64,000 bases of DNA from Minisyncoccota bacterium (GCA_035627655.1 DASPLI010000001.1:195355-259354), one strand, 5' to 3'. Counted from the first letter of the stretch, positions 41,709 through 60,996 are shown. Numbers and translations are program-made. Notes: generated from the sequence alone by a model not told the origin.

Positions 41709-42320
41709 TTAGCGTACAAACGACTTGCGTCGCAGCAGCTGTCGCAGTTTATCCGGCTCGCCCGTCCCCCGCTTCCGCTTGGTCGGCTGGTAGCAGAGAC
41801 GTGCGTGATCCGCGCAGTAAGGACCATGCGTCTGGCCGCGTCCACAAAACGCGAAGTCCTTCTGGTCAGGATCACCGATTGGAAACTTGCACATCGATTC
41901 GTTGATCGTCAGCACGCTTGCCGGCGCCCCGTCTTCAAACCGCACTGGTTCGAGTTCTGGAATCACGGCTGGTGTTGGCGGTCGTTCGATGTAGGTTCGT
42001 GGCTGCACGCGACGCGCGGCGACAGCTGAACGGTTTGCGCGCGGACGCGCTGGCCGTACGATGTTGTTCGCCTTGAACTTCGCGAGCACTTCGGCACCGT
42101 CTGCGTATCGATCTTTGATTACTTTCGATAGGCGCGGACGATGCAGGGCTCCAAGGACCACGCTTCGCGTGATTTCCTTGAAGCGGTCGCTTGAGGGACG
42201 AAACTTTCGGTCGAGCTGTCGTGCGACAGCGCTCGCGGATGAACATGCTTTCGCCGCTTGATAGAAAGCTTCGATGCAGTCATCTCGTTTGGCGTCCCAG
42301 CGAGGTAGCACTGTTTCCAT
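41709..42320 (-). CDS. GcrA-like cell-cycle-regulator-family protein
   Basis: N-terminal W-x-x-x-R…-S-A-S-x-V/I-A segment (WDAKRDDCIEAFYQAAKACSSASAVARQL…GALHR) and C-terminal CKFPIGDPDQKDFAFCGRGQTHGPYCADHARLCYQP, matching the conserved GcrA C-terminal Cys motif. Confidence 0.55.
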   Translation of the reverse strand: METVLPRWDAKRDDCIEAFYQAAKACSSASAVARQLDRKFRPSSDRFKEITRSVVLGALHRPRLSKVIKDRYADGAEVLAKFKANNIVRPARPRANRSAVAARRVQPRTYIERPPTPAVIPELEPVRFEDGAPASVLTINESMCKFPIGDPDQKDFAFCGRGQTHGPYCADHARLCYQPTKRKRGTGEPDKLRQLLRRKSFVR

Positions 42321-42534
42321 ATCTACTCCCCTATGTAATGTGCTCCTACCCATAGATATACTCCTACACCACGCTCTCGTCTATCGGGATAATACTTCGC
42401 TACGCATACAAAATAAGTCAATGTGCTATACTCCGCCCATCGGCAACGACTGCACGTCCTGTAACGACTGAACTGCCGCCGATATTCCTTCGTCATACGT
42501 GCGCTTAATAACCGGTGCGTTGTAGTGAACAAGT

Positions 42535-44099: not shown

Positions 44100-44429
44100 T
44101 CAGCGAATGACGTCAGCGCGCAACCCAATAAAGAAATCCTGCACAAACGTTTGTCCGGTAGAGATGTAAAACGCGATCCACATCGGCACGAGAATGCCGA
44201 CGCTGATCACGAGCGGGAAAATCCCTACCAGTGCAGCAAGTTCAAGGTTTCTGTTACTGAGTATGGCAAGACCCACAACCATGGCGATGCCGCACAGGGC
44301 GGATACGACCAGAATGGCGGGCAGTGTGAGGAACGTTCCTGCGAGGATGCCGAAGAGTGCCGGCACACCCCACATCAGAAGTGGGTACATGTAGTCCTGA
44401 TCTCCTTCTTGAAGCCGTAGCGCATACAA
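44100..44429 (-). CDS. hypothetical small membrane protein
   Basis: Three TM helices in 109 aa. Confidence 0.35.
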   Translation of the reverse strand: MYALRLQEGDQDYMYPLLMWGVPALFGILAGTFLTLPAILVVSALCGIAMVVGLAILSNRNLELAALVGIFPLVISVGILVPMWIAFYISTGQTFVQDFFIGLRADVIR

Positions 44430-44837
44430 ACACAGAAGATGTGTACTAGCAAGTATTCATTGACCCTCATCAATTTTCGTGGTACAGAAAGTCACTTTGC
44501 CAATGGTGGCAGGGTTGTTCTTTGAAAGAGGAACACAGCAATGAGCAGTAAGAGAGCTCAGGCCCCGCGGAATCTCAAGGTCACCGCGTCGGTCGTGGCT
44601 ATCGTGGGTGGGGAGCGTCCTTTCGCTGTCACCTACCCCTCGAAGCGGTCCGTCGGCGGAAAGCTTCGTGAGCATACAAGCATTACCTTCTCGCTCTCCA
44701 GCTGGCGCGGCAAAGACCGTCCCCAGTGCGGACAGATGGTGGTGCTTGAGGACATACTCTTGTTTAAGAGAGGATGGCGCGCCCGCGTGGCGTACCCCAT
44801 CTCCCTCTCGAACACTCAGCAGTAGCAGGAGGACGGT

Positions 44838-45578
44838 ATGAAACCGTTTCAAGGCTCTACGCAAGAATGCTTCGCGCATTTTGCCGAGCAGCTTGCAAGT
44901 GACTACGAATACCATCGGAAACGAAAGGTGTTCGCCGCTACCGTGCACGTTACCGACGGCACCGTCCAGCGTTGGTTTTCCCAAAACGGGTTACCCATGG
45001 GCGAGGCACTCGTGCGTGTCCGGTACTACCTCGACTTCCTCGGCTACGCTGTTGCTGAGGTACAAGAACTGCCAGAGGCGATCCGCACCGTGGGTCACCT
45101 GATTACGTTCGACGTCCTTTCGGTTGCTGATGTGGCCGGTTCTACCGGTTACGAAGGCGTGCCGAAAAACAATGTCGACCAGGTGATCGCCGTTTTGTGC
45201 GGTCGTCGCGGCGTCTCGGAAGAAAAGTTCGCGCTTTACAGCGAGCTTGCTCGCGTCAACCGGAAACGGCTGACGCAACGGCAGCAGGCAGTTGAAAAAG
45301 TCGTGAGCTTCGAACAGGGACACTGCCCTACGGAACCGGAGTCATTTCCGACCGCGAGGCCTGAGAGCGATTCGCACCGCAAGGTGATCATCGAATCGTT
45401 CGTTCACTCGGTGGAAGCAATTCTGCCGCTCGCCGAAGACGTGTTGTCTGATGGCTTCACCGCCGCGGACCGCGCGAAGGTGCGAGATTTGGTTGGGAGC
45501 GGCATTTCCCGTCTCTCCAACCTGCTCACCCAATTGACGAGCGAGGGTGCGAGAAACACCCTCAAGAAACAGCAGTAG
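44838..45578 (+). CDS. hypothetical protein with two XRE-like HTH-like segments
   Basis: Segments ATVHVTDGTVQRWFSQNGLPMGEALVRVRYYL and DVLSVADVAGSTGYEGVPKNNVDQVIAVL fit an HTH_3-like pattern. The next gene starts 11 nt after its stop. Confidence 0.45.
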   Translation: MKPFQGSTQECFAHFAEQLASDYEYHRKRKVFAATVHVTDGTVQRWFSQNGLPMGEALVRVRYYLDFLGYAVAEVQELPEAIRTVGHLITFDVLSVADVAGSTGYEGVPKNNVDQVIAVLCGRRGVSEEKFALYSELARVNRKRLTQRQQAVEKVVSFEQGHCPTEPESFPTARPESDSHRKVIIESFVHSVEAILPLAEDVLSDGFTAADRAKVRDLVGSGISRLSNLLTQLTSEGARNTLKKQQ

Positions 45579-45591
45579 AAAGGTGTCCGCT

Positions 45592-47304
45592 ATGCCTAGC
45601 GCACAATCCGCGGTTCGTACGAGCCGCAGCGAGGTGGGCTTCCATCACGGAAAGACCCTCCTCAAAGTCGCCAACACGTACCCGTCCCTCTTTGAGGCGG
45701 TGCTCGAAGCCGTGCAAAACGCGATCGATTCTGAAGCCACGAAAATTGGCATCATTATCAATCGCAAGACGCGGTCGATCAGCATCATCGACAACGGGAA
45801 CGGTGTGACGCGCGAGCAACTCGACGAAGCGCTCGCCAGCGTCGGCAGTACACTCAAGCAGCGCGACAAGCTTGGCCAATTTGGCTATGGCCTCATTTCC
45901 TCCTTAGGGAAGTGTGAGTCCATGTCGTTCACCTCGTGCCCCGCAGGGGGCGACGAGTACCTTGAGTGGACGTTTGACACCGCGAAGATCGCCAACCAAG
46001 TTCGTGCGATCAAAATTCCGGTTGCGAAACGTAATTTCGTCTACCGCCCGAACCGTGACGGCCCACCCCTTCCACGGGGTTGGCATGCCACGGAATGGCG
46101 GACGCGGGTCTCGATCAACAATTACGTGACGGACCGCAAGATCTCCGAAATCCGGAGCGCCGATGCCCTCAAGGAGGCCATCGTCGAGAAGTTCGGCATC
46201 CCAATGCGGCGGAACGATGTGTCCGTCAGCGTCGACATCACGAACGAGAACGGCTCGCGGGAGACAGCGGTCGGGAAGGCAAAGCTCTTCTCCGGCAAGA
46301 AGCTCCCTGAAGTCGTCATCTCGGATAAGGATGCTGGTAACACCATCTTCCGGCTCTATCTCGCCAAGCCCGGCCGTCAAGGCAAGGTCTTGGTCGGGGT
46401 GGTCGGCGACGACTACCGCTTCGCGTTCGGCGTCTTCGCTAAGGAGGCGTCGGAACTTCTCTCGACGAACATCATCGAACTGTTCGTTAAGGAAGGCATC
46501 TTCGAGGGCGAGATTCTCACGACCAATGGGAAGCTCCACGACTCGAGGAAGAAGCTTGAGCAGAACGACGCCTATGTGGGCTTCTGCGCCACGATTGAGG
46601 AATGGTTCCTCAAGCATGGCAAGAAGCACCTCAAGGAGGTCAAGGACGAACGGCAGGGCCAGCGCATTCAGGACCTGTCGCTCAAGAGCCTTGAGAACGT
46701 GCAGAGCGTGCTCTCGGACGACGCGTTCGACCATCTTCGTAAGGGGACGATCGACACCTTCCGGTACGGCACTGTCGGCGCTGGGCATACCAATCCCGAA
46801 GATCGCAAGATCGTCGGGACACAGGAAAACCCGTCACTGTCGACCGTCGCTAGCGCGCGCAAGCGCGGTGAAGGCGGCGAAAGCCACGGGAACGAGCCTC
46901 CGGAGCGTGAACACGCCGGCCATATTCCCTTCACTGCTGCTGGCCCTCGCGGTCAGCAGCGGCGGGTGGTAAAGGGCGGCTCGCGCGGGCTTCAGTTCGA
47001 TCACACGGCAATGCGGTCCGATGGACCGCTCGCCGTGCTCGATGCTGGTAACGGCATTATCTTCTTCAACGTTGAGCACCCGGCCTGGGTAGCGGCGTCT
47101 GAAGCGGGTGACCGTGAGCTCATGCAGCTGCAGGAAGTCGGCGCCCTCGTTTCCCTCGTGCGTCACACGATGCCCGAGGAATACCATGGGTATCTCGACC
47201 TCTACCTGACCGACCTTCTTGGTCCGCTGTCGTTCCTCTTGCGCAACTCCCCCTCCTTCAGCTCCTCGGCTCGCACGAAGGCGAGCAAGGAAAAGAAGGA
47301 GTAG
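45592..47304 (+). CDS. Hsp90/MORC-like GHKL (HATPase_c_3-type) ATPase
   Basis: Bergerat-fold motifs: N-box LEAVQNAIDS, G1 box IIDNGNGV, G2 box LGQFGYGLISSLG. The roughly 400-aa C-terminal region has no recognisable domain. Confidence 0.6.
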   Translation: MPSAQSAVRTSRSEVGFHHGKTLLKVANTYPSLFEAVLEAVQNAIDSEATKIGIIINRKTRSISIIDNGNGVTREQLDEALASVGSTLKQRDKLGQFGYGLISSLGKCESMSFTSCPAGGDEYLEWTFDTAKIANQVRAIKIPVAKRNFVYRPNRDGPPLPRGWHATEWRTRVSINNYVTDRKISEIRSADALKEAIVEKFGIPMRRNDVSVSVDITNENGSRETAVGKAKLFSGKKLPEVVISDKDAGNTIFRLYLAKPGRQGKVLVGVVGDDYRFAFGVFAKEASELLSTNIIELFVKEGIFEGEILTTNGKLHDSRKKLEQNDAYVGFCATIEEWFLKHGKKHLKEVKDERQGQRIQDLSLKSLENVQSVLSDDAFDHLRKGTIDTFRYGTVGAGHTNPEDRKIVGTQENPSLSTVASARKRGEGGESHGNEPPEREHAGHIPFTAAGPRGQQRRVVKGGSRGLQFDHTAMRSDGPLAVLDAGNGIIFFNVEHPAWVAASEAGDRELMQLQEVGALVSLVRHTMPEEYHGYLDLYLTDLLGPLSFLLRNSPSFSSSARTKASKEKKE

Positions 47305-47313
47305 GTAAACAAA

Positions 47314-47357
47314 GGCCCCCTGCTTCGCCATTTGGCGGAGCAGGGGGTTTGCTTTTA
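47314..47357. terminator. bidirectional rho-independent terminator
   Basis: CCCCCTGCTTCGCCatttGGCGGAGCAGGGGGtttgctttt. Confidence 0.65.
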
Positions 47358-47657
47358 CGTGGAGCGGGCCTCTTGTTGCGCCTCTCCCCGCATGATCGCG
47401 CGGGTTCCGATGAGCGGAATCTTTGGATCGATGTTCTCGAAGAACCGCTCGATCGGCACTTCAAGCGCATGGGCGATCAGGTAGAGGTACGACGCGCTGA
47501 CCGTGCGGCCGCCGCTTTCAAAGGAACGAATGTCCTTAGGCGGAACTTTGATGCGGTCGCCGAGTTCAAACTCGGAGACGCCTTTTTCATGGCGAATGCG
47601 ACGGATCGCTTTCGCAAAGTGCGAGTTGAGCGGATGATTTCCAAGACGTTCTGGCAT
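47355..47657 (-). CDS. XRE-family HTH transcriptional regulator
   Basis: IRRIRHEKGVSEFELGDRIKVPPKDIRSFESGGRTVSASYLYLIAHALEVPIERFF is a typical HTH_3. Confidence 0.7.
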   Translation of the reverse strand: MPERLGNHPLNSHFAKAIRRIRHEKGVSEFELGDRIKVPPKDIRSFESGGRTVSASYLYLIAHALEVPIERFFENIDPKIPLIGTRAIMRGEAQQEARST

Positions 47658-47843: not shown

Positions 47844-48116
47844 ATGAACAAAGCAGATATCGTAGGAAAGGTGCAGGGCGTCCTCGGCGGCACGAAGGCA
47901 GATGCTGAGCGCGCTGTTGAATGCATCATTGACTCCATTACCGCAGCCCTTAAGTCTGGCGACGAGGTTTCGATCGCCGGTCTTGGCATCTTCGTTGCGA
48001 AGGCTCGCCCGGCTCGCACCGGCCGCAACCCGCGCACTGGTGAGACCATTCGCATTGCTGCGACTCGCACCCCGAAATTCCGTCCCGCAAAGGCACTCAA
48101 AGACGCGGTTAAGTAG
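47844..48116 (+). CDS. hup: HU-family nucleoid-associated DNA-binding protein
   Basis: MNKADIVGKV…AGLGIFVAKARPARTGRNPRTGETIRIAATRTPKFRPAKALKDAV. Confidence 0.85.
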   Translation: MNKADIVGKVQGVLGGTKADAERAVECIIDSITAALKSGDEVSIAGLGIFVAKARPARTGRNPRTGETIRIAATRTPKFRPAKALKDAVK

Positions 48117-48136
48117 TTTTTCTCCGCTCTGTCGCG

Positions 48137-48170
48137 AAATGGCCGCCCCTCTGGCGGCCATTTGCGTTTC
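48137..48170 (+). terminator. rho-independent terminator
   Basis: AAATGGCCGCCcctctGGCGGCCATTTgcgtttc. Confidence 0.6.
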
Positions 48171-48250: not shown

Positions 48251-48751
48251 ATGACGCGTATCTTCGTCGCGATTTTCCTCTTTCTGTGCTGTATCGCCCT
48301 GCCGGATCAGGTATCTGCCCGCCAGTACGCTGGCTATACGGCAGACGGAACGGTTCGCGTCACAGTACGGGAGGTTGAACCTCGAGGACGAATCCAAGTA
48401 CAGGATGATGCGCCGTTCTTTACGCTGCTCTTCCTGTTTATGTGTCTCGGTCTACTGATTGCACTCATCCTTTCGTTTGACGACGAGGGTGAGAGCGGAG
48501 AAGAAGCAACGGCACAGCCGGCTTCCCCGCCACCACCTCCAGCACCCGCACCGCCGCCGATACCGCCCGCCGATCCTTTGCCACCACTGCCAGTCGTGGT
48601 TGAGGATACGGAAGCGCGTCGTCGCTTGCGTGTTAGTCGGGATGCGCTTCGGCGCGCCGACGAGCGCGCGGAAGAAATACAGCAGGAGGCATATCGAGCC
48701 CTACGAGACCTCGACGAATCACCACCAGTACCTTCAAGACGGCGCACCTAG
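48251..48751 (+). CDS. hypothetical bitopic membrane protein with Pro-rich cytoplasmic tail
   Basis: RBS ACGGAGGA. Signal (IFVAIFLFLCCIALPDQVSA), one TM (LLFLFMCLGLLIALIL), PPPPPAPAPPPIPP stretch, charged helical end. Confidence 0.45.
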   Translation: MTRIFVAIFLFLCCIALPDQVSARQYAGYTADGTVRVTVREVEPRGRIQVQDDAPFFTLLFLFMCLGLLIALILSFDDEGESGEEATAQPASPPPPPAPAPPPIPPADPLPPLPVVVEDTEARRRLRVSRDALRRADERAEEIQQEAYRALRDLDESPPVPSRRRT

Positions 48752-48996
48752 CGCCGTCTCTTTTTTGTGCTAGGATCCCTGACAGGCCGCTTCATCCAGG
48801 CTTCAGGGTCTGGATCGTAGCGTAGGGCTTCCACCGGTCTCCCCCAAGGATCGACCGGTTGATCTTTCGCGAGTTTCGCATTGTCTCCCTCCTGTATACG
48901 TGTGTGCGGCGTCGGATATCGCGCCTGCGCAGAACTGTTATGTGCAGGCGTCATAGCCGCTGTCATGAAGACACGGTTGATTGTAGGAGAAGGACA

Positions 48997-49452
48997 ATGA
49001 ACCTTACCCCGGATCGACGCCCTGAACGGGGCGACGGCCAAGGTGGCTCGCGTTCACCGCAGCCGCCCAACACCAGGCAACCCCAGCGCGCCGACGACGA
49101 CGGCATGTCGTTTGAAGACGCCTGGAACGCCATGAACGAAGCCTGGAAAGGCATGCTGCGCGAAGCTGGCCAGCTTCGCACCGAGGCTCAAGAAGCCAAG
49201 GCGGCGGCCAATCAAGAAAAAGCTCGCGCCGACCGGCTGCAAGAAGAGTTGCGCGTTTCCGACAGCGAAAAGAAGCGGCTCTTTGATGACAACACTCGCC
49301 TGCAAGGTCTCCTTGACCAGGCGCGCAACGTCATCAAGAAGTTTGCTGAAAAGCAAGACGAAGCGCGTGCTCAGATCCGTGATGACTATCGCGCTATCAC
49401 GGAGCCGCCGCCGCCTGAACGGACCGGCCGCGGTGCTGAACGGCACCAGTAA
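48997..49452 (+). CDS. hypothetical coiled-coil protein
   Basis: RBS AGGAGAAGGA. 151 aa with a heptad-like charged central region. Confidence 0.45.
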   Translation: MNLTPDRRPERGDGQGGSRSPQPPNTRQPQRADDDGMSFEDAWNAMNEAWKGMLREAGQLRTEAQEAKAAANQEKARADRLQEELRVSDSEKKRLFDDNTRLQGLLDQARNVIKKFAEKQDEARAQIRDDYRAITEPPPPERTGRGAERHQ

Positions 49453-49468
49453 GATCAGAAGCCCTTTC

Positions 49469-49504
49469 AGAGGCGACGCCCCAGCGTCGCCTCTTTCTTT
49501 TTCC
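49469..49504 (+). terminator. rho-independent terminator
   Basis: AGAGGCGACGCcccaGCGTCGCCTCTttctttttcc. Confidence 0.7.
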
Positions 49505-49525
49505 TGACGGGTGTATCATGGGAGC

Positions 49526-50221
49526 ATGACTTTTGCTGAAATGCCGCCGATTCCGGGCAAGAAGTTTGCCCCAGGAAAGACTGGTCAGCTCGAACGCCTG
49601 GATGCCAAGCGTCGTCTGACAAAGGCAAAGCGATGGGTAAAGTCTGGTTGGGAGAACGTGGTAACGCGCATTCCCAACAAAGCTGATATTTACGCCTACT
49701 CGTTTCGAACGCCCGATGAGGGGTTTCGTGCTCGAGAGATTTACTACATTCATCGCATCTTGAAAGTGCTCTTCCCGTCGCACTTCCCGAGAATTCGCGC
49801 AGCGATGGAGCATCGTAACAATTCAGAGACGCCCGGCGGCACGGTGCGACAGGAAGTAAAAATAAAGGAGGACCCACTTGCGGACAGTCGCAAAGCAAGT
49901 TTCGTGTACTGGTTTATGCAGAACTTTGTTACTAAAACCACAGAGGGAGATTTCCAAGAGGTGCGCCAGGCGCTCCAGGACATGGGCATCAAGAGCGGTA
50001 TTGATTTCAACCCGGCTAATTTTGCGGCTGATGAAGAGGGGCATGAACAATATCTCGATACGGCGCCTGGGCTCGCAGAGCCGTTTATCAATCAGCATCC
50101 GCGGATTATTGAATACATGTGGGCGCGCGGCTATGCAGGGGATGATGTTCGCAAGGTAGAGAAAGCGCTCAAACGCCTTGATACGCTTGTTGCCCGCCGT
50201 AAGAAGCGGCTCACTCGCTAG
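49526..50221 (+). CDS. hypothetical protein
   Basis: 232-aa globular-looking ORF. Start ambiguous between 49511 and 49526. No SD. Confidence 0.4.
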   Translation: MTFAEMPPIPGKKFAPGKTGQLERLDAKRRLTKAKRWVKSGWENVVTRIPNKADIYAYSFRTPDEGFRAREIYYIHRILKVLFPSHFPRIRAAMEHRNNSETPGGTVRQEVKIKEDPLADSRKASFVYWFMQNFVTKTTEGDFQEVRQALQDMGIKSGIDFNPANFAADEEGHEQYLDTAPGLAEPFINQHPRIIEYMWARGYAGDDVRKVEKALKRLDTLVARRKKRLTR

Positions 50222-50248
50222 TTCAAAGTTTGCTCCACAGGCCGTTAG

Positions 50249-50276
50249 TTGACTATATAGACTACTGTTGTATTAT
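50249..50276 (+). promoter_or_regulatory. sigma70-like promoter (TTGACT, 16 bp spacer, TATTAT)
   Basis: ttgactATATAGACTACTGTTGtattat lies 35 nt upstream of RBS GGAGGAGG and the ATG at 50312. Confidence 0.45.
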
Positions 50277-50311
50277 CATAGGCAGACTTGATCTTAGACA
50301 GGAGGAGGATC

Positions 50312-51457
50312 ATGCCTGAGGCGACGCGGGTGGAAACATCTGCAGCGACATGCGAAATTCGGTGTTCTCGTGATCGATTTTCTGGTGCCCGTGGGGAGTT
50401 CGCACGAATAGCTAGTTTCGTGGAAGAACTTCTGACGGAAGCCGGGCTATCCGGGAATTTCCAATGCGTGCCGCATAAGCCAGTTCGCGGCGGACATGCG
50501 AACAAGGGCCAAGGATTCCGTATCACGCGAGTGGACGGGTCTGATGGGCTGATGTGTATCATCCAGCTCGGCTCCAATGATTCTGCATGGGAATGCAAAC
50601 TCTTGCTTCCGGCGACGTTCTTGCCTGAAAAGGTGAAGACGCAGCTGGAAGAGGCGCTTCGGCGCCGAAATGCTCGGCCTGTGAAGGCGGTCCCGCCTCC
50701 TCCCCCGGAGGAGCCCGACCCGCCACCACCAGCGCCGGCCGTATGCGATGTTATTGCGGATCTCGAGCGCGTCGCGCTCCTGATTGCAGGACAGTTCCCC
50801 GAACGGAAGAGTTGCTCTCCGTACGAGGTGATCGCCGATCTGTTCATTGATGAATATCAATGGGCATCGGCGGAAGCGCACCAAGCGATACTGGCTTTGG
50901 TCAACCGGCGGCACTTTAAGCTTGCAGGCAGCACTGCGGATCAGCGTTACATCAGCATTCTGGACGGCGCGCTGTGCGACCACTTGAAGGTCCTCAGCGT
51001 GCTCAAGGAAGCTGAAACGAAGACTCCCGCTCCCGTCGTCACTGCTCCCGTCGTCTCCGACAAGCAGCGATTGCGGACAGAAGCCTCGCAGATGTACGTC
51101 GGCCAGCCTCTGGACGACGAACCTCGCCCCCGACCACGGCTTGTTCGCTCGGAGGCGCCTGCCCCGACGCAACCAGCACCGCCTGCGGCTCCCACCGGAA
51201 TCGCGGCCCAGCTTGCCGATCTTGAGCAGAAGTCACTGGTATTCGAGGAAGCGCAGCACCAGCTGCGCCAAGCCGAACCCGCGACCGCTGCGCTTGAGGA
51301 GCGCTGGGAACGTGCTCAGGAAGAGATCGCTGCGATTACGCGCGAGCGCGAACGTTTGAGCGCGGAGTGTGCCGATGCGAACCGCATCGTTGCAGATCCG
51401 AACTACGCTCAGGCGGCCGAAAAGCTTGCTCGCATTCGCGAGATCATTTCATCCTGA
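50312..51457 (+). CDS. hypothetical multidomain protein (Cys-containing N-domain, poly-Pro linkers, C-terminal coiled coil)
   Basis: Strong RBS GGAGGAGG. 381 aa. PPPPPEEPDPPPPAP and PAPTQPAPPAAP linkers. Confidence 0.5.
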   Translation: MPEATRVETSAATCEIRCSRDRFSGARGEFARIASFVEELLTEAGLSGNFQCVPHKPVRGGHANKGQGFRITRVDGSDGLMCIIQLGSNDSAWECKLLLPATFLPEKVKTQLEEALRRRNARPVKAVPPPPPEEPDPPPPAPAVCDVIADLERVALLIAGQFPERKSCSPYEVIADLFIDEYQWASAEAHQAILALVNRRHFKLAGSTADQRYISILDGALCDHLKVLSVLKEAETKTPAPVVTAPVVSDKQRLRTEASQMYVGQPLDDEPRPRPRLVRSEAPAPTQPAPPAAPTGIAAQLADLEQKSLVFEEAQHQLRQAEPATAALEERWERAQEEIAAITRERERLSAECADANRIVADPNYAQAAEKLARIREIISS

Positions 51458-51463
51458 ACGCGA

Positions 51464-51494
51464 GCGGCCCCCGGTACGGGGGCCGCTTTGTTTT
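51464..51494 (+). terminator. rho-independent terminator
   Basis: GCGGCCCCCggtacGGGGGCCGCtttgtttt. Confidence 0.7.
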
Positions 51495-52647
51495 AAGTCT
51501 TCTTTCTAAAGTAGGTTTTTTTCTTGAGCTTTTCCGGCATATAGCTCTCGGTGTCGTAGCGCTTGTATCCCTTTCCGTAGCCGAGTTCTTTCATGAGCTT
51601 GGTCGGTGCGTTTCGAATATTTTTCGGGATCGGCAGATTTCCCAAGCGAGCAACGTCTGCCTGCGCTTCTCGGAGCGCTTCGTATGCTGACTTATCTTTC
51701 TTGCAATTGGCGAGATACGCGGTGCCGTGCGCGAGGTTGATGGCGCATTCCGGATAGCCGATCGTTTCGCACGCACGGAATACCTCGTTTGCAACGACAA
51801 GCGCGGTTGGCTGGGCAAGGCCAATGTCTTCGGACGCGAAGATCACCATGCGCCGCGCAATAAAGAGCGGATCCTCCCCTGCTTCTACCATGCGAGCAAG
51901 ATAGTAGATGGCAGCGTCCGGCTGATTTGCACGCATGCTTTTTATATAGGCGGAAATAGTATCGTAGTGTTCTTCACCTTTCTTGTCGTAGCGAAGATGC
52001 GGAGACTCAAGTGCTTTGGTAAGCGTTTCCGTCGTAACCGCTCCGTACAAACGTTCTGCGCCTTCAAGCATGGTGAGCGCTCGTCGCGCGTCCCCGTTTG
52101 CGTAACCCATGAGCCATTCAAACGCGTCCTTCCCGACTTTAAGTTTTGACCGCTTCACAATCTTCTTGAGCGCTTCTTCCGATAGCGGCTCGAGTACGAA
52201 TACCCTGCAGCGAGATAGGAGCGCCGGGATGACCTCAAATGATGGGTTTTCAGTCGTTGCACCGATCAGCGTGAGGTCTCCGCTTTCAACGTATGGCAGG
52301 AGAAAATCCTGCTGGCTTTTGTTGAAACGATGGATTTCATCGAGAAACAGTACCTTGGGCTTCCCAATCGCGAGCTTCCCGTTGCGGCTTGTGTCGTCGA
52401 CGATCCGACGAATGTCGTCCTTGCCCGCAGAGACGGCAGACAGCTCATACAGTTCTGCATCAAGCGCCTTGGCATAAATGCGTGCGATGGTGGTCTTTCC
52501 TGTGCCTGGCGGCCCCCAGAGAATAAACGAGAATCGATGTTTTTTCTCTATAGCAACACGGATTGGCTTGCCTTCTCCAACCAGATGCTCTTGCCCCACC
52601 ACCTCTTCAAGGCGTTCAGGACGAAGGCGGGAGGCTAGGGGTTCCAT
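51493..52647 (-). CDS. rarA: replication-associated recombination protein RarA/MgsA (AAA+ ATPase)
   Basis: LWGPPGTGKTTIARI Walker A, LFLDEIHRFNK Walker B, C-terminal MgsA helical region. Confidence 0.85.
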   Translation of the reverse strand: MEPLASRLRPERLEEVVGQEHLVGEGKPIRVAIEKKHRFSFILWGPPGTGKTTIARIYAKALDAELYELSAVSAGKDDIRRIVDDTSRNGKLAIGKPKVLFLDEIHRFNKSQQDFLLPYVESGDLTLIGATTENPSFEVIPALLSRCRVFVLEPLSEEALKKIVKRSKLKVGKDAFEWLMGYANGDARRALTMLEGAERLYGAVTTETLTKALESPHLRYDKKGEEHYDTISAYIKSMRANQPDAAIYYLARMVEAGEDPLFIARRMVIFASEDIGLAQPTALVVANEVFRACETIGYPECAINLAHGTAYLANCKKDKSAYEALREAQADVARLGNLPIPKNIRNAPTKLMKELGYGKGYKRYDTESYMPEKLKKKTYFRKKT

Positions 52648-52733: not shown

Positions 52734-53858
52734 CTAGTCAACTTCGTTGAGCGCATCTTCTGCGAGCTCTTCCGCTTCTTCAGCGTACTCGATTGCTTCG
52801 TCGTAGTCTTCGTCATCGAAGGCATCTTCTGCATCATTGAGTGCGTCGAGCGCGTCATTCAAGAGGTCTTCCGCGTCTTCCGTGTCGTCATTAGAGTCGC
52901 TGATCGCTTCCTGCGCTTCATCGATGGCGTCTTCAGCGTCTTCAATTGCTGCTGCCGCTTCGCTCTCGTCCTCGTCGAAGTCAATCTCATCCAACGCTTC
53001 GCTGATAAGGTCGCGCGCCTCGTCAATCAGATCCATTGCGTCCTCGTAATCTTCGTCGTCGATGTCGTCCTCTGCCTCGTTGAGGAGTTCTTCTGCCTCA
53101 TCAAGCGCTTCCTGTGCATCTTCAACGTCCTCACCGTCGTCTTCTGCTTCCTCGACGTTCTCGCGCGCCTCATCAAGCTCATCTTGAGCTTCCTCGAGCG
53201 CCTCTTCCGCGCTGTCTTCGTCGGCGTCTTCGTTGTCATCATCCTCGTCGTCGCTTGAATCGTCGATGGCGTTGTCTGCCTGGGACTCGGCAGTGCGCGC
53301 AAGCGAGGTGGCGCTTGCAATGTTTGCGTTGAGGAATGCGCGGAACGCTGCAAAGAGGTTTGAAAGCGAGTCTTCAAGGTCGCTATCATCTGCCTCATCC
53401 CGTGCGTCTTCGTAGGCGCTAATGGCGTTGAGGAGCGCCGTGCGCGCCTCAGCTGCTCCACCAATATTCGGGTTGCTTGGGGTTGTTGGGCTGCCCGGAG
53501 TAGTTGGGATGGTTGGCGTGCCGCCAATGAGCGTCTTGTATTTTGCACGCGAGAGCGGGCCGAAGGTTCCAGTTGCGGAAATGCCGTTTGCCGTCTGCCA
53601 GCGAGAGACTGCGTCAGCGGTCTTCTCGCGGAAGAGGGTGGTTTCCTGGCCCGGAGCGCCTACGCCGCTCGTTGCGACAATGTAGCCAGCTCCGTTGAGG
53701 TACTGCTGCAAGCAGCGGACATCTTCGCCGGTTACGCCCAGGGTAAGGTCACGAGTAAAATTACAGTCAGTGGCTGCAAAGACACCTGCCGGAAGTGCGA
53801 GCGTTCCGACAAGCGCAAGCGAGAGAACTGACGATATGAAAATCTTTCGCATAGGCAT
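52734..53858 (-). CDS. secreted peptidoglycan-binding-domain protein with hyper-acidic repetitive C-terminal region
   Basis: Signal peptide (ALVGTLALPAGVFAA). PG_binding_1-like segment (LTLGVTGEDVRCLQQYLNGAGYIVATSGVGAPGQETTLFREKTADAVSRWQTANGISATG). Roughly 230 aa of E/D/A/L repeats (EAxDxLDEAxE…). Confidence 0.6.
   Translation of the reverse strand: MPMRKIFISSVLSLALVGTLALPAGVFAATDCNFTRDLTLGVTGEDVRCLQQYLNGAGYIVATSGVGAPGQETTLFREKTADAVSRWQTANGISATGTFGPLSRAKYKTLIGGTPTIPTTPGSPTTPSNPNIGGAAEARTALLNAISAYEDARDEADDSDLEDSLSNLFAAFRAFLNANIASATSLARTAESQADNAIDDSSDDEDDDNEDADEDSAEEALEEAQDELDEARENVEEAEDDGEDVEDAQEALDEAEELLNEAEDDIDDEDYEDAMDLIDEARDLISEALDEIDFDEDESEAAAAIEDAEDAIDEAQEAISDSNDDTEDAEDLLNDALDALNDAEDAFDDEDYDEAIEYAEEAEELAEDALNEVD
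52740..53400. repeat. imperfect tandem coding repeats encoding the D/E-rich helical units
   Basis: Recurrent gcgtcttc/gcctcttc…gag units are visible by eye across the region. Confidence 0.5.
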
Positions 53859-53961
53859 AGCGCGTTTAATGTGTATGTCTGTACGATAGCACGGCTGCAT
53901 GAAGCGATCGTGTGAAAAAAAGACCGCCGAGCCCCCTTGCGGGAACTCGACGGCCACTCGC

Positions 53962-54336: not shown

Positions 54337-54412
54337 ACAACACCTCCTTTCGTTGTAGTGAGCATTGAGAGTATACTATAAATATATAGAATAGTCAATA
54401 GTTGGTGCGGGA

Positions 54413-54486
54413 TAGGAGAATCGAACTCCTGCCAGCAGTTTGGAAAACTGCGGTTCTACCATTAAACTAATCCCGCTTCGAAGCCG
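54413..54486 (-). tRNA. tRNA-Gly (anticodon UCC), CCA encoded
   Basis: Cloverleaf folded by hand: acceptor GCGGGAU/AUCCCGC, D-stem GUUU/GAAC, anticodon stem GCAGU/ACUGC with loop UUUCCAA, T-stem AGGAG/CUCCU with loop UUCGAUU, 3' ACCA. Confidence 0.8.
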
Positions 54487-54541
54487 AGGATACCATGTTT
54501 TGCTCTGTATTTCAGCGCCGTTGTGCCGTAGCATACAGGTA

Positions 54542-55756
54542 ATGCTCCAGCACTTCCTTTCCATAGCCGGTGCCCTCCTTGTTACCTTTATCGCTACGGT
54601 CTCAAACCATGCAGGAGATTTCCGCACCCCACCTAATCTCTCGGACATGGACGCCGTTGAGGAGGTGGTTCTAGCTCAGCCAACAGTCCCTACTCCCTTT
54701 GAACAAGTAATAGAGGATATCGTCAAAAACGCTTCCAGTACGCCGGCTGTTCCCGGTACCACTACCCCACCCCTTTCTCCGGCAAAGCCCGCTGGCCCTA
54801 TTACGCCTACGACCCCCACCCCGCTGCCGCCGCTCACGCTCCCAGTTACCCCACCGCCACCGCCAACAACGCCGGTTGTTCCGCAGGTGGACGCCACCCT
54901 CTCGGACGAGGCGCTGCTGCGGGCAGCGATCGTCAATATCATCTGTTTCAGCACCGACGGTACCTCCGGCGTCTCAGGCTCTGGCGTAATCGTAGACCCG
55001 CGCGGCATTGTCGTTACGGTATCCCATATCGCCCAGCACTTCCTGCTCCGTGATTACCCATCGGAAGATGCAGGTGTCTGCTATATCCGCACGGGAAGTC
55101 CGGCCAAGAATGCCTATACGGCAGAACCGATCTTTATTTCCCCGACCTGGATTGAGGAAAACAGCACCGCCTTCCTCACGAGTCGCCCACGGGGCACAGG
55201 CGAGCACGACTTCGCCTTCCTTGCGATTACCGGTTCTCTCACCAAGACTCCGCTTCCAGCTCGCTTTGACCATATTCCGCTTGCGCCAGCCAATACCGAG
55301 GTAGAGGAAGGTGAACGGGTCGGCACTGGCTCATACGCAGCTGAATTCCTTACCAGCTCCCAAGTACGCTCTTCCCTCTACCCCACGATCAAGTTTGCAG
55401 ACGTCAAAGACGTGCTTACCTTCGATCACCAGACCCCAGGCCTTATCTCTGTTGCTGCCGGATCAGCAGCGCAGGAGGGCTCTTCTGGTGGTGCCGTTAT
55501 GAATAGCGACGACCGTCTGGTCGGTGTCATCACCACAAGGACCGTAAAGCCAGATCTGTCCTTGAGGACGCTCCAGGCGCTCACGATGGACCACATCCGT
55601 TCAAGCTTCCGAGCAGATATGGGCGAGAATCTTGATGCTTACCTCAAGAGCGATCTCTCAACGCTCATCGTAAAGTTCCGCGGCAAGGCAGTCGGGCTCT
55701 TCGATATCCTCATGGAGGCAGTGGAAGAGTGCGAGGAAGACCGTGCGGGTTGTTAG
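54542..55756 (+). CDS. secreted trypsin-like (S1 family) serine protease
   Basis: TM/signal (IAGALLVTFIATV), Pro/Thr-rich linker, His region GIVVTVSHIAQH, catalytic Ser GSSGGAV. Start trimmed to the ATG at 54542 so as not to overlap the tRNA. Confidence 0.6.
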   Translation: MLQHFLSIAGALLVTFIATVSNHAGDFRTPPNLSDMDAVEEVVLAQPTVPTPFEQVIEDIVKNASSTPAVPGTTTPPLSPAKPAGPITPTTPTPLPPLTLPVTPPPPPTTPVVPQVDATLSDEALLRAAIVNIICFSTDGTSGVSGSGVIVDPRGIVVTVSHIAQHFLLRDYPSEDAGVCYIRTGSPAKNAYTAEPIFISPTWIEENSTAFLTSRPRGTGEHDFAFLAITGSLTKTPLPARFDHIPLAPANTEVEEGERVGTGSYAAEFLTSSQVRSSLYPTIKFADVKDVLTFDHQTPGLISVAAGSAAQEGSSGGAVMNSDDRLVGVITTRTVKPDLSLRTLQALTMDHIRSSFRADMGENLDAYLKSDLSTLIVKFRGKAVGLFDILMEAVEECEEDRAGC

Positions 55757-55827
55757 TCGGGCCGCTGGGAATCGAACCCAGTCTGTCTGCTCCCAAAGCA
55801 GATGTACTACCGGTATACTACGGCCCG
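55757..55827 (-). tRNA. tRNA-Pro (anticodon UGG), CCA not encoded
   Basis: Acceptor CGGGCCG/CGGCCCG, anticodon stem UCUGC/GCAGA with loop UUUGGGA, T-arm CUGGG-UUCGAUU-CCCAG. Followed by CTA rather than CCA. Confidence 0.7.
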
Positions 55828-55990
55828 TCTCGGGCATCCTAGCACGACTTTGAGAAAAACCGTTAGTTTCCAGGCTCTTTTCCCTGTCTGACCGCGGTCA
55901 CAAGGACTGTCCTTTGTCCTTTATCCCCAGTATGCACAGGGTTTTACACAGGTAAGAGAAAACGGCCTATACAGGCCGTTTTCTCTCTTT

Positions 55991-56064
55991 TGGTGCGGTC
56001 AGGGAGAATCGAACTCCCGACTAGTCCTTGGCAAGGACTCGTTTTACCACTAAACCATGACCGC
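55991..56064 (-). tRNA. tRNA-Gly (anticodon GCC), CCA encoded
   Basis: Acceptor GCGGUCA/UGACCGC, D-stem GUUU/AAAC, anticodon stem AGUCC/GGACU with loop UUGCCAA, T-arm GGGAG-UUCGAUU-CUCCC, ACCA. Confidence 0.8.
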
Positions 56065-56071
56065 GTGCGAC

Positions 56072-56755
56072 TCACGAGATATTCTCATAATATTGCCCAT
56101 TCATCAATTCCTTGGGGAGTAAATTGAGCCATTCCCCGAGCTTTTGGCGCAAATATCCGCTTGAAACGATGACTGTGCACACCCCGCCAGCAAATCGTTT
56201 CACCTTGGGAACCTTCTGCACGATAACGGTCGTTTGAAACTGGGAAAGTGGGATTCCAGAAGCGAAGGACCAGAAGCGCCGTATCGATGGATCATCCGCA
56301 TCTGGATAGGATAGAAGCGCCACTTTGACCTGGTTCTGGGGCACGTTGCAGACCCGGGTAAGAAAGGTGATGAAGATCTTTATTGTTTCCGGGTTTGCTC
56401 CCGAAAACCGAACCTGGTTCCTGGCCGCCTTCGTTCCGGCACTCCAATATAGTGTCATCCCGGCAATAAATAGCGGATGGTACTTGAGCGTCTCGAACTC
56501 TGTTCGCGCCTCCACCCGCGCCTGCTCGTATGCTTCCCGAAGCCGCCGGCCGCGAACCTTGGCAAGTCCGGCAACCCGGACCCTGCTCTTCTCCCTGGCA
56601 GCAGCCTGGAGTTTTTCCCGCAAATCGGCAGACCAGGCTTCGCCGGAGAACCAGGCGGAGAGGGTCGCCCGCGGTATACCAAGCTCTTTCTCAATCTCCT
56701 TATAGCTTTTTCCAGACTTTCTGAGTTCCTCAGCCTTATTGCGATCAGTACGCAT
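56072..56755 (-). CDS. hypothetical HTH-domain protein embedded in tRNA cluster
   Basis: N-terminal HTH (KSGKSYKEIEKELGIPRATLSAWF). 227 aa, no further recognisable motifs. Confidence 0.4.
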   Translation of the reverse strand: MRTDRNKAEELRKSGKSYKEIEKELGIPRATLSAWFSGEAWSADLREKLQAAAREKSRVRVAGLAKVRGRRLREAYEQARVEARTEFETLKYHPLFIAGMTLYWSAGTKAARNQVRFSGANPETIKIFITFLTRVCNVPQNQVKVALLSYPDADDPSIRRFWSFASGIPLSQFQTTVIVQKVPKVKRFAGGVCTVIVSSGYLRQKLGEWLNLLPKELMNGQYYENIS

Positions 56756-56818
56756 ACTTACAGCATATAGTACACAGGTTCAGTTCCCTGTCATATAGGT
56801 GAATAGCCTCACTCGTTG

Positions 56819-56890
56819 TGCTCCCGCCAGGACTCGAACCTGGAACAACAGTTCCGAAGACTGTTGTGATATCCATTTCACCACAGGAGC
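56819..56890 (-). tRNA. tRNA-Arg (anticodon UCG), CCA not encoded
   Basis: Acceptor GCUCCUG/CGGGAGC, D-stem GUGA/UCAC, anticodon stem ACAGU/ACUGU with loop CUUCGGA, T-arm CCAGG-UUCGAGU-CCUGG. Confidence 0.7.
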
Positions 56891-60012: not shown

Positions 60013-60918
60013 TTATTTTCCTCGGCTATGAAACTTCCGATGCACTTCTCGCAGATGTGCATCCGTCACATGCGTGTAAATTTGCGTCGTGTTGATGGAT
60101 GCATGACCAAGAAGTGCCTGCACGCTTCTAATATCAGCGCCGTTTGAGAGAAGATCGGTTGCAAAGGAGTGGCGAAGTACATGCGGCGTGACTTTCTTGG
60201 TAATTCCCGCTTTCGCCGCATACTTTTTCATAATGTTCTGCACCGAGCGGGGCGTGAGACGGGCTGCGTTCTTGCGGGACATCTTTTCGTCCGCCACCAC
60301 GTTTACAAACAGTGCCTCCTCCATGTCTTTGCGCTCCTTCAGGTACGTGCGCACCGCTTCCTTTGCGGAAGGGGAGAGGAAGACGACGCGCACCTTGTCT
60401 CCCTTACCGCGCACTGACAATTCGTCTCGCGAGAGGTCGATATCCGAGTTGAGGGAGCAGAGTTCCGAAACACGAAGACCAGTTGAGAAGAGAAGTTCGA
60501 GAATTGCACGGTCACGCAGTGCCCGTTGACTGGTGCCTTTTGTTGCGTCGAGAAGACGCTCGAGCTCAGTTGAAGAAATAAGGTCGAGGGAGCGTTCAGG
60601 GAGCTTCGCAAGTTCGATGCGCTCCGGGGAAACGCACGGAATCTCGCGCTTGCGGAGAAACTTGAGAAACGCACGAAGCGCGATGAGGTAATAATTCTGT
60701 GTTCGGCGCTTCATGGCGCCTGAGGTGCCTGGCTGGCGGTTCAGCCAGAGGCGGAATTCGCGAATTTTGTCTTCCGTGATATCGCTCACATTCTTGATCT
60801 GTCCCCAAGCAAAGAATCGATCAAGATAGTGGTCGTAGTTTTCAACTGTCTTTACCGCGCGACCGCGCTCAATCTCGATGTATTCAAGAAATTGGCGTTT
60901 CATTGCGGCAGCATCCAT
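60013..60918 (-). CDS. xerC: tyrosine recombinase XerC/XerD family
   Basis: N-terminal core-binding domain. C-terminal R…HVLRHSFATDLLSNGADIRSVQALLGHASINTTQIYTHV with catalytic Y. Confidence 0.8.
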   Translation of the reverse strand: MDAAAMKRQFLEYIEIERGRAVKTVENYDHYLDRFFAWGQIKNVSDITEDKIREFRLWLNRQPGTSGAMKRRTQNYYLIALRAFLKFLRKREIPCVSPERIELAKLPERSLDLISSTELERLLDATKGTSQRALRDRAILELLFSTGLRVSELCSLNSDIDLSRDELSVRGKGDKVRVVFLSPSAKEAVRTYLKERKDMEEALFVNVVADEKMSRKNAARLTPRSVQNIMKKYAAKAGITKKVTPHVLRHSFATDLLSNGADIRSVQALLGHASINTTQIYTHVTDAHLREVHRKFHSRGK

Positions 60919-60949
60919 AAAAAAAGTATACCGTACGACTTCGCACAAT

Positions 60950-60996
60950 ATTTTGTCGGGAAAAACAAAAAGGCCGCGCACGTGAGCGCGGCCTTT
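60950..60996 (-). terminator. rho-independent terminator (serves the 61018-62841 gene)
   Basis: On the minus strand AAAGGCCGCGCtcacgtGCGCGGCCTTT is followed by ttgtttttcc. Confidence 0.65.

Follow-up and report, generated by a model that had tools for sequence, protein, structure and literature searches.

Flexible genomic islets are recognized by conserved flanks that enclose a gap, and to our knowledge such islets are little described in genomes of the candidate phyla radiation (CPR, or Patescibacteria). CPR genomes are very small, and much of their gene content is unannotated. Among proteins with a protein-kinase-like (PKL) fold, Bud32/PRPK and RIO are minimal atypical kinases of about 230 amino acids (aa) without an activation segment. 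Here we compare with these systems a block of four consecutive open reading frames (ORF1 to ORF4, NCBI locus tags VEB18_01280–01295) that lies between hup and rarA in a stretch of 64,000 nucleotides (nt) from a Minisyncoccota bacterium (GCA_035627655.1 DASPLI010000001.1:195355-259354), called the window throughout. The window comes from a 742-kb contig (ENA ERZ27252484 k141_498263) from a soil metagenome-assembled genome (MAG) labelled 'Candidatus Paceibacterota bacterium', and its host belongs to the Paceibacteria, Kaiserbacteria-like CPR bacteria. An initial annotation, made from the nucleotide sequence, had described the four genes as independently regulated members of no recognisable family that could form a divisome- or cytoskeleton-like assembly or represent a prophage remnant. 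We consider it likely that the block is the cargo of a flexible islet and not a functional machine, with ORF3 coding for a kinase-like protein and ORF1, ORF2 and ORF4 being species-specific orphans. A literature search on hypervariable islets in Patescibacteria or on a CPR kinase-like family returned nothing relevant.

The region between hup and rarA was compared across 80 related loci, which were collected with a RarA scan of GTDB species representatives and then searched by tblastn with all proteins of the window. Twenty relatives, with RarA 71-85% identical, retain the backbone RNase Y – hup – rarA. In 8 of these 20 the gap is empty, with a distance of 57-165 bp between hup and rarA, while the other 12 have between 441 bp and 7.5 kb at this position; the window itself has 3.4 kb. 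None of the 80 loci, including the relatives with 85% identical RarA, yielded a tblastn homologue of ORF1, ORF2 or ORF4, and no ORF3 homologue was found near rarA in any of them, even with a hidden Markov model (HMM) search using the family profile. A blastn search of the whole 3.4-kb spacer against all loci returned ORF3 homologues only. According to Pfam, the gaps of the relatives contain a TrmB-family regulator, an N6/N4 DNA methylase, an OmpR-type regulator, a cupin and several unknowns, and a β-barrel-like unknown protein is found among their cargo as well. A prephenate dehydratase (PDT) domain was assigned via homology to the Pfam-annotated PDT gene of locus L005. At this locus (1-2617) an ORF3 homologue with 43% identity adjoins a module of PDT, TrmB and β-barrel-like genes. 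Between the proteins of this module and the cargo of the hup–rarA gap in L006 and L007, aa identity is 60-81%. Since the module of L005 corresponds to the gap cargo of L006 and L007, genes of the ORF3 type belong to the gene pool of this hotspot and behave as present-or-absent elements. The 20 relatives show conserved flanks, unrelated cargo and empty sites. The hup–rarA spacer is therefore a flexible islet, and its content changes even between closely related genomes. In this lineage of Paceibacteria the convergent pair of hup and rarA is the conserved frame, and the spacer between them would be a hotspot that gains and loses unrelated accessory genes and that in the window species probably holds four separately transcribed ones. 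The block is ordinary content of a flexible islet plus one member of a sizeable, unannotated kinase-like family. Its features are the following:

47844..48116, plus strand: hup, coding for the HU DNA-binding protein (PF00216, E 5e-30; 82-89% identical in 20 relatives); left border
48133..48166, plus strand: terminator hairpin of hup (folding energy -24 kcal/mol, z -4.96)
48251..48751, plus strand: ORF1, 166 aa
48737..48759, plus strand: terminator of ORF1, a 9-bp stem followed by CTTTTTTGTG (-17.6 kcal/mol, z -4.5), overlapping the ORF1 stop codon
48997..49452, plus strand: ORF2, 151 aa
49469..49494, plus strand: terminator of ORF2, an 11-bp stem followed by a T-tract (-21.6 kcal/mol, z -6.9)
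49526..50221, plus strand: ORF3, 231 aa
50249..50276, plus strand: sigma-70-like promoter 5' of ORF4, TTGACT-16-TATTAT (10 of 12 consensus matches)
50312..51457, plus strand: ORF4, 381 aa
51462..51488, plus strand: terminator hairpin common to the convergent ORF4 and rarA, a 12-bp stem with 10 G-C pairs (-28.6 kcal/mol, z -4.8)
51493..52647, minus strand: rarA/mgsA, coding for a recombination-associated AAA+ ATPase (MgsA_C plus AAA; PF12002, E 1.6e-50); right border

ORF3 is the member of the block for which a family could be assembled. A word-indexed search revealed five other clusters at 43-77% identity, which align with ORF3 from end to end and have many positions invariant. With a HMMER profile run against 1.84 billion representatives (clusters at 50% identity) we recovered 246 proteins at E≤1e-3 and 91 at E≤1e-10, almost all of them 200-290 aa long and typically of about 210-260 aa. 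The broad family alignment offered no stretch conserved enough for a metagenome scan, and a narrower alignment led to one short locus. The family was previously unannotated and is widespread. Its members are encoded in at least seven different contexts, never together with ORF1, ORF2 or ORF4. In L003 the gene follows an RND efflux pump, and in L004 it has a TrmB regulator and a glutaredoxin nearby; it stands beside FtsW and glycosyltransferases in L088, beside a guanylate kinase and a two-component system in L094, and between the ribosomal protein genes L9 and L27 in L096. A recurrent neighbour was not seen among the contexts examined.

Conservation was counted in an alignment of 96 family members. 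R108 and N165 are invariant, and G41, A57, the stretch L82-F-P-x-x-F-P88, D160, D178, M198 and R217 are conserved in at least 90% of the sequences. Several of these positions correspond to landmarks of kinases. A Gly-rich loop between β1 and β2 is present, with the family consensus G39-x-G41-x-E43-x-x-V46 and G41 in 95 of 96 members, and strand β3 carries the motif V55-x-A57. The catalytic loop Asp-x4-Asn is likewise present, with D160 in 95 and N165 in all 96 sequences, and in P0017 and some other members it reads D-V-K-P-D-N-F, which is close to eukaryotic kinases. D178, in the motif Y-[VL]-D after β8, occupies the place of the metal-binding Asp of the DFG motif (95/96). On β5 the family has a motif GT-x-R108, and 92 of 96 members have Lys or Arg at position 70, where helix C starts.

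An AlphaFold2 model built with the 96-sequence alignment reached a predicted local distance difference test score (pLDDT) of 89.5 and a predicted template modelling (TM) score of 0.87, compared with a pLDDT of 57 when only 6 sequences were used. The modelled order of elements is αN, β1-β2-β3, αC, β4-β5, helices (αE), the D160…N165 loop, two short strands (β7-β8), D178 and C-terminal helices. This corresponds to a bilobal PKL fold, at TM-scores of 0.25-0.44 to its matches. Indeed, the top 50 Foldseek matches in the PDB are all protein-kinase-like folds, among them PRPK/Bud32, Cdc7, CK2, GCN2, cyclin-dependent kinases (CDKs), LicA, APH(2''), FN3K, MTR kinase and the kinase domain of a lanthipeptide synthetase. 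Kinases also make up most of the top 50 matches in BFVD, the best of which are phage entries named 'protein kinase' (E 1.8e-5, TMq up to 0.44). ORF3 is thus modelled as a PKL fold that forms a family of its own. Most likely the protein would bind ATP/Mg and transfer phosphate to some protein or small-molecule substrate, with Arg108 on β5 and Lys/Arg70 at the start of helix C as candidate phosphate binders.

The other three genes are of a different kind. ORF1 has a hydrophobic segment that resembles a signal peptide or transmembrane helix (residues 1-24, …PDQVSA|RQ), a short ectodomain, a transmembrane helix (52-80), then an acidic stretch with poly-Pro (85-117) and at the C-terminus a charged helix, which agrees with the initial description of a membrane protein with a poly-Pro tail. 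ORF1 does not contain any lysine: Arg accounts for 11% of its residues and R/(R+K) is 1.0, compared with 0.23-0.86 in most other genes of the window, where a 96-aa gene at 44100-44390 is the only other lysine-free gene noted. In ORF2 a coiled coil of about 90 residues comes after an N-terminal tail that is disordered, basic and rich in Pro and Gly. ORF4 begins with a Cys-containing N-domain (1-128), which a poly-Pro linker (121-146) joins to a helical middle domain (146-236); a linker rich in Pro and Ala then leads to a C-terminal coiled coil (about 290-381). For none of the four proteins did Pfam, PHROGs, NCBIfam or PADLOC give a match above noise. ORF2 and ORF4 showed weak, sub-threshold coiled-coil matches only (ATG16, SMC-type); in the PADLOC defence models these two produced coiled-coil noise (JetC, LmuB; E > 0.004) and ORF1 and ORF3 no match. 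Residues 1-236 of ORF4 have no sequence relative in the PDB. When ORF4 was compared with 5.8 billion proteins, it was itself the only match among the matches listed. The 90% cluster of ORF1 has one member, and the only relative of ORF2 in its 90% cluster is a strain variant. On sequence comparison ORF1, ORF2 and ORF4 appear to be lineage-specific orphans. Probably they act in the envelope or as scaffolds and are either young or evolving very fast; proteins of this kind are common in episymbiotic CPR genomes. The initial statement that none of the four genes belongs to a recognisable family therefore stands at the level of sequence (Pfam, PHROGs, NCBIfam, PADLOC and PDB). It gives way for ORF3, which a structure-based search places in the PKL superfamily, so that membership of known families, named beforehand as a finding that would speak against the proposal, applies to part of the block.

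The flanks of the block could be verified, as Pfam domains identify both hup and rarA, the four ORFs are present at the coordinates given, and an independent gene caller run on the source contig returned the same genes. Sequence scans and folding also located the proposed expression signals. The ribosome-binding sites are GGAGGA for ORF1, AGGAGAAGGA for ORF2, AGGAGGAGGA for ORF4 and a weak GGGAG for ORF3, and 36 nt separate the upstream TTGACT-16-TATTAT promoter from the start codon of ORF4. Counted across the region, terminator-like sites are no more frequent than expected, with 5 observed and 5.1±2.4 in shuffled sequence. However, the three terminators of the islet lie well beyond the scan threshold (GC-rich stems of 9-12 bp, -17.6 to -28.6 kcal/mol, z -4.5 to -6.9), and their hairpins start 5 nt after the stop codon of ORF4 and 17 nt after that of ORF2, the ORF1 stem overlapping its stop. 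With terminators after ORF1, ORF2 and ORF4 and a promoter before ORF4, separate transcription units are predicted, as had been suggested. For coding evidence we used a codon-usage log-likelihood ratio trained on 24 core genes of the window, which themselves score 0.17-0.48, and compared all six frames. For each of the four genes the annotated frame outscores the other five, and ORF2 (0.26) and ORF3 (0.27) score within the core range. An upstream TTG extension of ORF2 (48859-48996) is non-coding by this score. NCBI annotates ORF4 in a shorter form of 301 aa that starts at M81. Taken together with a host-like GC content at third codon positions (GC3), these signals support the view that the four ORFs are probably real genes and not noise; residual doubt concerns ORF1 and the first 80 codons of ORF4.

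A strain variant of the window organism (L086, L087) is 99.3% identical, with 8 single-nucleotide polymorphisms (SNPs) over 1.1 kb. All three SNPs in ORF3 are synonymous, and judged from these sequences ORF3 appears to be under purifying selection. Five SNPs fall in ORF2; both P24S and Q28P are located in the disordered N-terminus, and the single change in the coiled coil is synonymous. The spacer between ORF1 and ORF2 (48752-48996, 246 bp) has no SNP in this variant. It contains no recognisable promoter and no Rfam match, and an antisense ORF of 97 aa (48748-49041) overlaps it.

The base composition of the block was also considered. Its GC content is slightly raised (0.59-0.62 compared with about 0.52-0.57), and in ORF1, ORF2 and ORF4 this stems from first codon positions, i.e., from a composition rich in Ala, Pro, Arg and Glu. 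A foreign origin by composition was rejected, as GC3 and the Arg/Lys ratio are within the host range, the lysine-free ORF1 excepted. Several core genes (putative starts at, e.g., 38095, 31979 and 56948) lack a Shine-Dalgarno (SD) sequence and have a -10-like box (TATACT, TAGTAT) 5-15 nt upstream, which suggests leaderless or very short-leader mRNAs in the window organism. Genes of the islet differ from these in having strong SD sites. SD usage was nevertheless dropped as a marker of foreignness, since core genes such as rarA have strong SD sites as well. We do not claim a signature of horizontal transfer for the block.

A number of observations weigh against parts of the interpretation given here, and they bear on the two rival explanations that concern the nature of the individual proteins. 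The kinase-fold assignment of ORF3 rests on a predicted structure. Most PDB matches have a Foldseek probability of 0.8-1.0, yet their E-values are borderline (≥1e-3) and their TM-scores are 0.25-0.38. No curated kinase family (Pfam Pkinase, RIO1, APH, Kdo, YrbL-PhoP_reg; NCBIfam) exceeded its threshold with ORF3, the 96 family members gave no consistent match to Pfam kinase families, and the family profile produced nothing but chance matches to nanobodies among PDB sequences. E. coli YrbL (PF10707), a 210-aa PKL protein of the PhoP regulon, is similar in size and one family member matches PF10707 weakly (E 0.005), but hhalign of the family profile against E. coli YrbL was negative (probability 0.6%, E 0.09), with an irrelevant stretch aligned. 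At the β3 lysine position (59) only 14 of 96 members have Lys or Arg; the other 82 lack it, and most members have Ser, Asn or Thr there. Consequently, the family could consist of pseudokinases or nucleotide-binding proteins. That ORF3 is no active kinase, but a pseudokinase, a nucleotide-binding scaffold or an over-interpretation of AlphaFold, is a possibility we take seriously and still hold unlikely. In addition to the altered β3 position, helix C has no conserved Glu across the 96 members, the Gly-rich loop of ORF3 itself is degenerate (KSGWENVV, with G41 alone left), the TM-scores do not exceed 0.44 and known kinase families are not linked at profile level. Pseudokinases, however, usually lose at least one of the catalytic Asp, the Asn and the metal-binding Asp, and in this family D160, N165 and D178 are kept in all or nearly all of the 96 diverse members, some of which retain catalytic loops like those of eukaryotic protein kinases; the confidence of the model is high and 50 of the 50 top PDB matches are PKL folds. 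The remaining points concern the orphans. ORF1 (0.11), ORF4 (0.14) and in particular the ORF4 N-domain have codon scores under the core range; the extra 80 codons of ORF4 (50312-50551) show the weakest value in the block, 0.04. As ORF1 and the ORF4 N-domain score below every training gene, their reality depends on signals and frame preference only. Furthermore, the orphan status of ORF1 and ORF2, which is based on the 80 related loci, IMG/VR, the profile libraries and 90% cluster look-ups, is less secure than that of ORF4. It could be argued that ORF1 and/or ORF4, or at least its N-terminal 80 residues, are chance ORFs in a GC-rich spacer and that only ORF3, perhaps with ORF2, is genuine. The low codon scores, a region rich in long overlapping ORFs on both strands, the lack of homologues found for ORF1 and ORF4, the absence of lysine from ORF1 and the NCBI start of ORF4 at M81 fit this idea. 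We regard it as fairly improbable: the annotated frame is the best of six in every segment, strong and correctly spaced SD sequences precede both genes, ORF4 has the 10/12 promoter, strong terminators lie at or a few nt past both stops, ORF1 has a textbook signal peptide and transmembrane architecture, and two independent gene callers report both genes.

Two further explanations treat the block as a unit. According to the first idea of the initial annotation, the four genes would build one module, a membrane-anchored divisome- or cytoskeleton-like assembly with Pro-rich linkers and coiled coils; in the form weighed here, ORF3 would act as its regulator. All four genes are indeed adjacent on the same strand, ORF1 offers a membrane anchor, Pro-rich stretches occur in ORF1 and ORF4, ORF2 and ORF4 resemble coiled coils and one of the four proteins is kinase-like. 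However, ORF1, ORF2 and ORF4 are absent from the 80 rarA loci and the gap is empty in 8 relatives, homologues of ORF3 reside in unrelated contexts and never beside the other three genes, and strong terminators separate ORF1, ORF2 and ORF3. Homology to FtsZ/A, ZapA/B, DivIVA, SepF, FtsB/L/Q, MreB/C/D or bactofilin was not detected in Pfam/NCBIfam beyond sub-threshold coiled-coil noise. A core cell-biological machine would not be species-specific, and the lack of co-occurrence across genomes argues against a conserved module and against anything core to cell division. The lack of synteny already refutes the assembly to a large extent, and we consider it very improbable. The second idea, a prophage remnant, here widened to any mobile element integrated between hup and rarA, could account for the insertion-like presence and absence compared with close relatives, for the slightly raised GC content and for orphan genes with strong SD sites. 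The best viral Foldseek matches of ORF3 are phage protein kinases, and an XRE regulator and a GHKL ATPase are encoded in the neighbouring gap. On the contrary, meaningful PHROG matches were not obtained, 2.9 million IMG/VR contigs contain no relative of the four genes and no member detected by the ORF3 family profile, and blastn against phage and plasmid records gave no match. We did not find direct, attachment-site-like (att-like) repeats at the borders, and the sole recombinase in the window is Xer-like and located about 9 kb away, beyond a tRNA cluster. GC3 equals that of the host, the GC excess stems from first codon positions, and elsewhere the ORF3 family is found among genes for ribosomal proteins, FtsW and guanylate kinase. 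A prophage origin is therefore improbable in our view, and a flexible islet carrying unrelated genes remains the preferred reading.

Several observations concern the surroundings of this islet. The spacer between RNase Y and hup (44100-47657) is also variable: it measures 120-170 bp in most relatives and 3.8 kb in the window, where it contains two small unknown genes, genes for a 246-aa unknown protein and a 570-aa GHKL ATPase, and a divergent XRE regulator. The ATPase has a HATPase_c_3 domain and weak N-terminal matches to MutL, MzaB, TmtA and BbrUII. The pair of 246-aa protein and GHKL ATPase is found at the same position in one relative (L023), with 27% and 34% identity, and may constitute a two-gene defence-like system. 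On the other side, the neighbour of rarA (52734-53957, minus strand) codes for a secreted protein in which a PG_binding_1 domain precedes an extremely acidic (Asp/Glu/Ala), DUF4398-like region of helical repeats. This protein is 34-46% identical in relatives and consequently evolves much faster than the flanking core genes. Further along the window, four tRNA genes (Gly-TCC, Pro-TGG, Gly-GCC and Arg-TCG; 54403-56890) are interleaved with a gene for a trypsin-like protease and an unknown gene, and a Xer-type tyrosine recombinase (60013-60981) is encoded about 3 kb past this cluster; we found no evidence that links them to the hup–rarA islet. The window of this CPR genome also encodes, at 41709-42353 on the minus strand, a GcrA-family protein (PF07750). 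GcrA is known mainly for its role as a cell-cycle regulator in Alphaproteobacteria.

What do these results mean for the annotation of such genomes? The question whether the block encodes a new divisome-like machine is answered in the negative. A fold and a probable chemistry for a family of about 250 clusters would trim the unannotated part of CPR genomes, and a kinase-like protein of 230 aa with an unusual N-lobe provides a concrete target for biochemists. In addition, the hup–rarA spacer is a defined and readily recognised hotspot, in which gene gain, gene loss and possibly gene birth can be traced across Paceibacteria MAGs. A bolder extension of this reading would hold that the ORF3 family is an active, CPR-confined minimal kinase in which Arg108 and Lys/Arg70 replace the β3 Lys and the αC Glu, that ORF1, ORF2 and ORF4 are very young genes, possibly formed de novo, and that the spacer serves as a gene nursery. 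We regard this extension as doubtful; if true, the combination of Arg108 and Lys/Arg70 would be a new way to build a kinase active site.

When compared with known kinases, ORF3 is closest in plan to Bud32/PRPK and RIO. It shares with them a size of about 230 aa, the bilobal shape, a D-x4-N loop followed by a metal-binding Asp and a truncated C-lobe, and human PRPK (7szb_A, 6wqx_D) is its top Foldseek match in the PDB. In contrast to these kinases, the ORF3 family lacks the β3 Lys and the αC Glu, has motifs of its own (LFPxxFP, and GT-x-R with the invariant Arg), shows no relation to them at the level of sequence and was seen in contexts without KEOPS or ribosome-biogenesis genes. The best structural matches of all, at a Foldseek probability of 1.0, are phage Ser/Thr kinases resembling T7 gp0.7 (from Pantoea, Klebsiella and Pectobacterium phages), but identity to them is 10-16%, and the ORF3 family has cellular housekeeping neighbourhoods and was not found in IMG/VR. 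Aminoglycoside phosphotransferases (APH), choline kinase (LicA) and FN3K match the fold at probabilities of 0.8-0.93 and have the Asp/Asn/Asp triad in common with ORF3, whereas the His of the Brenner motif (HxDxxxxN) is not conserved in the ORF3 family, the full-length root-mean-square deviation is 15-17 Å and there is no Pfam APH or Choline_kinase match. As for the locus, it differs from described flexible genomic islets in that no tRNA, integrase or repeat was found at the hup–rarA junctions and in that its host is a CPR bacterium with a genome of 0.7 Mb, and it agrees with them in its conserved flanks and in a gap that is either empty or filled with unrelated cargo.

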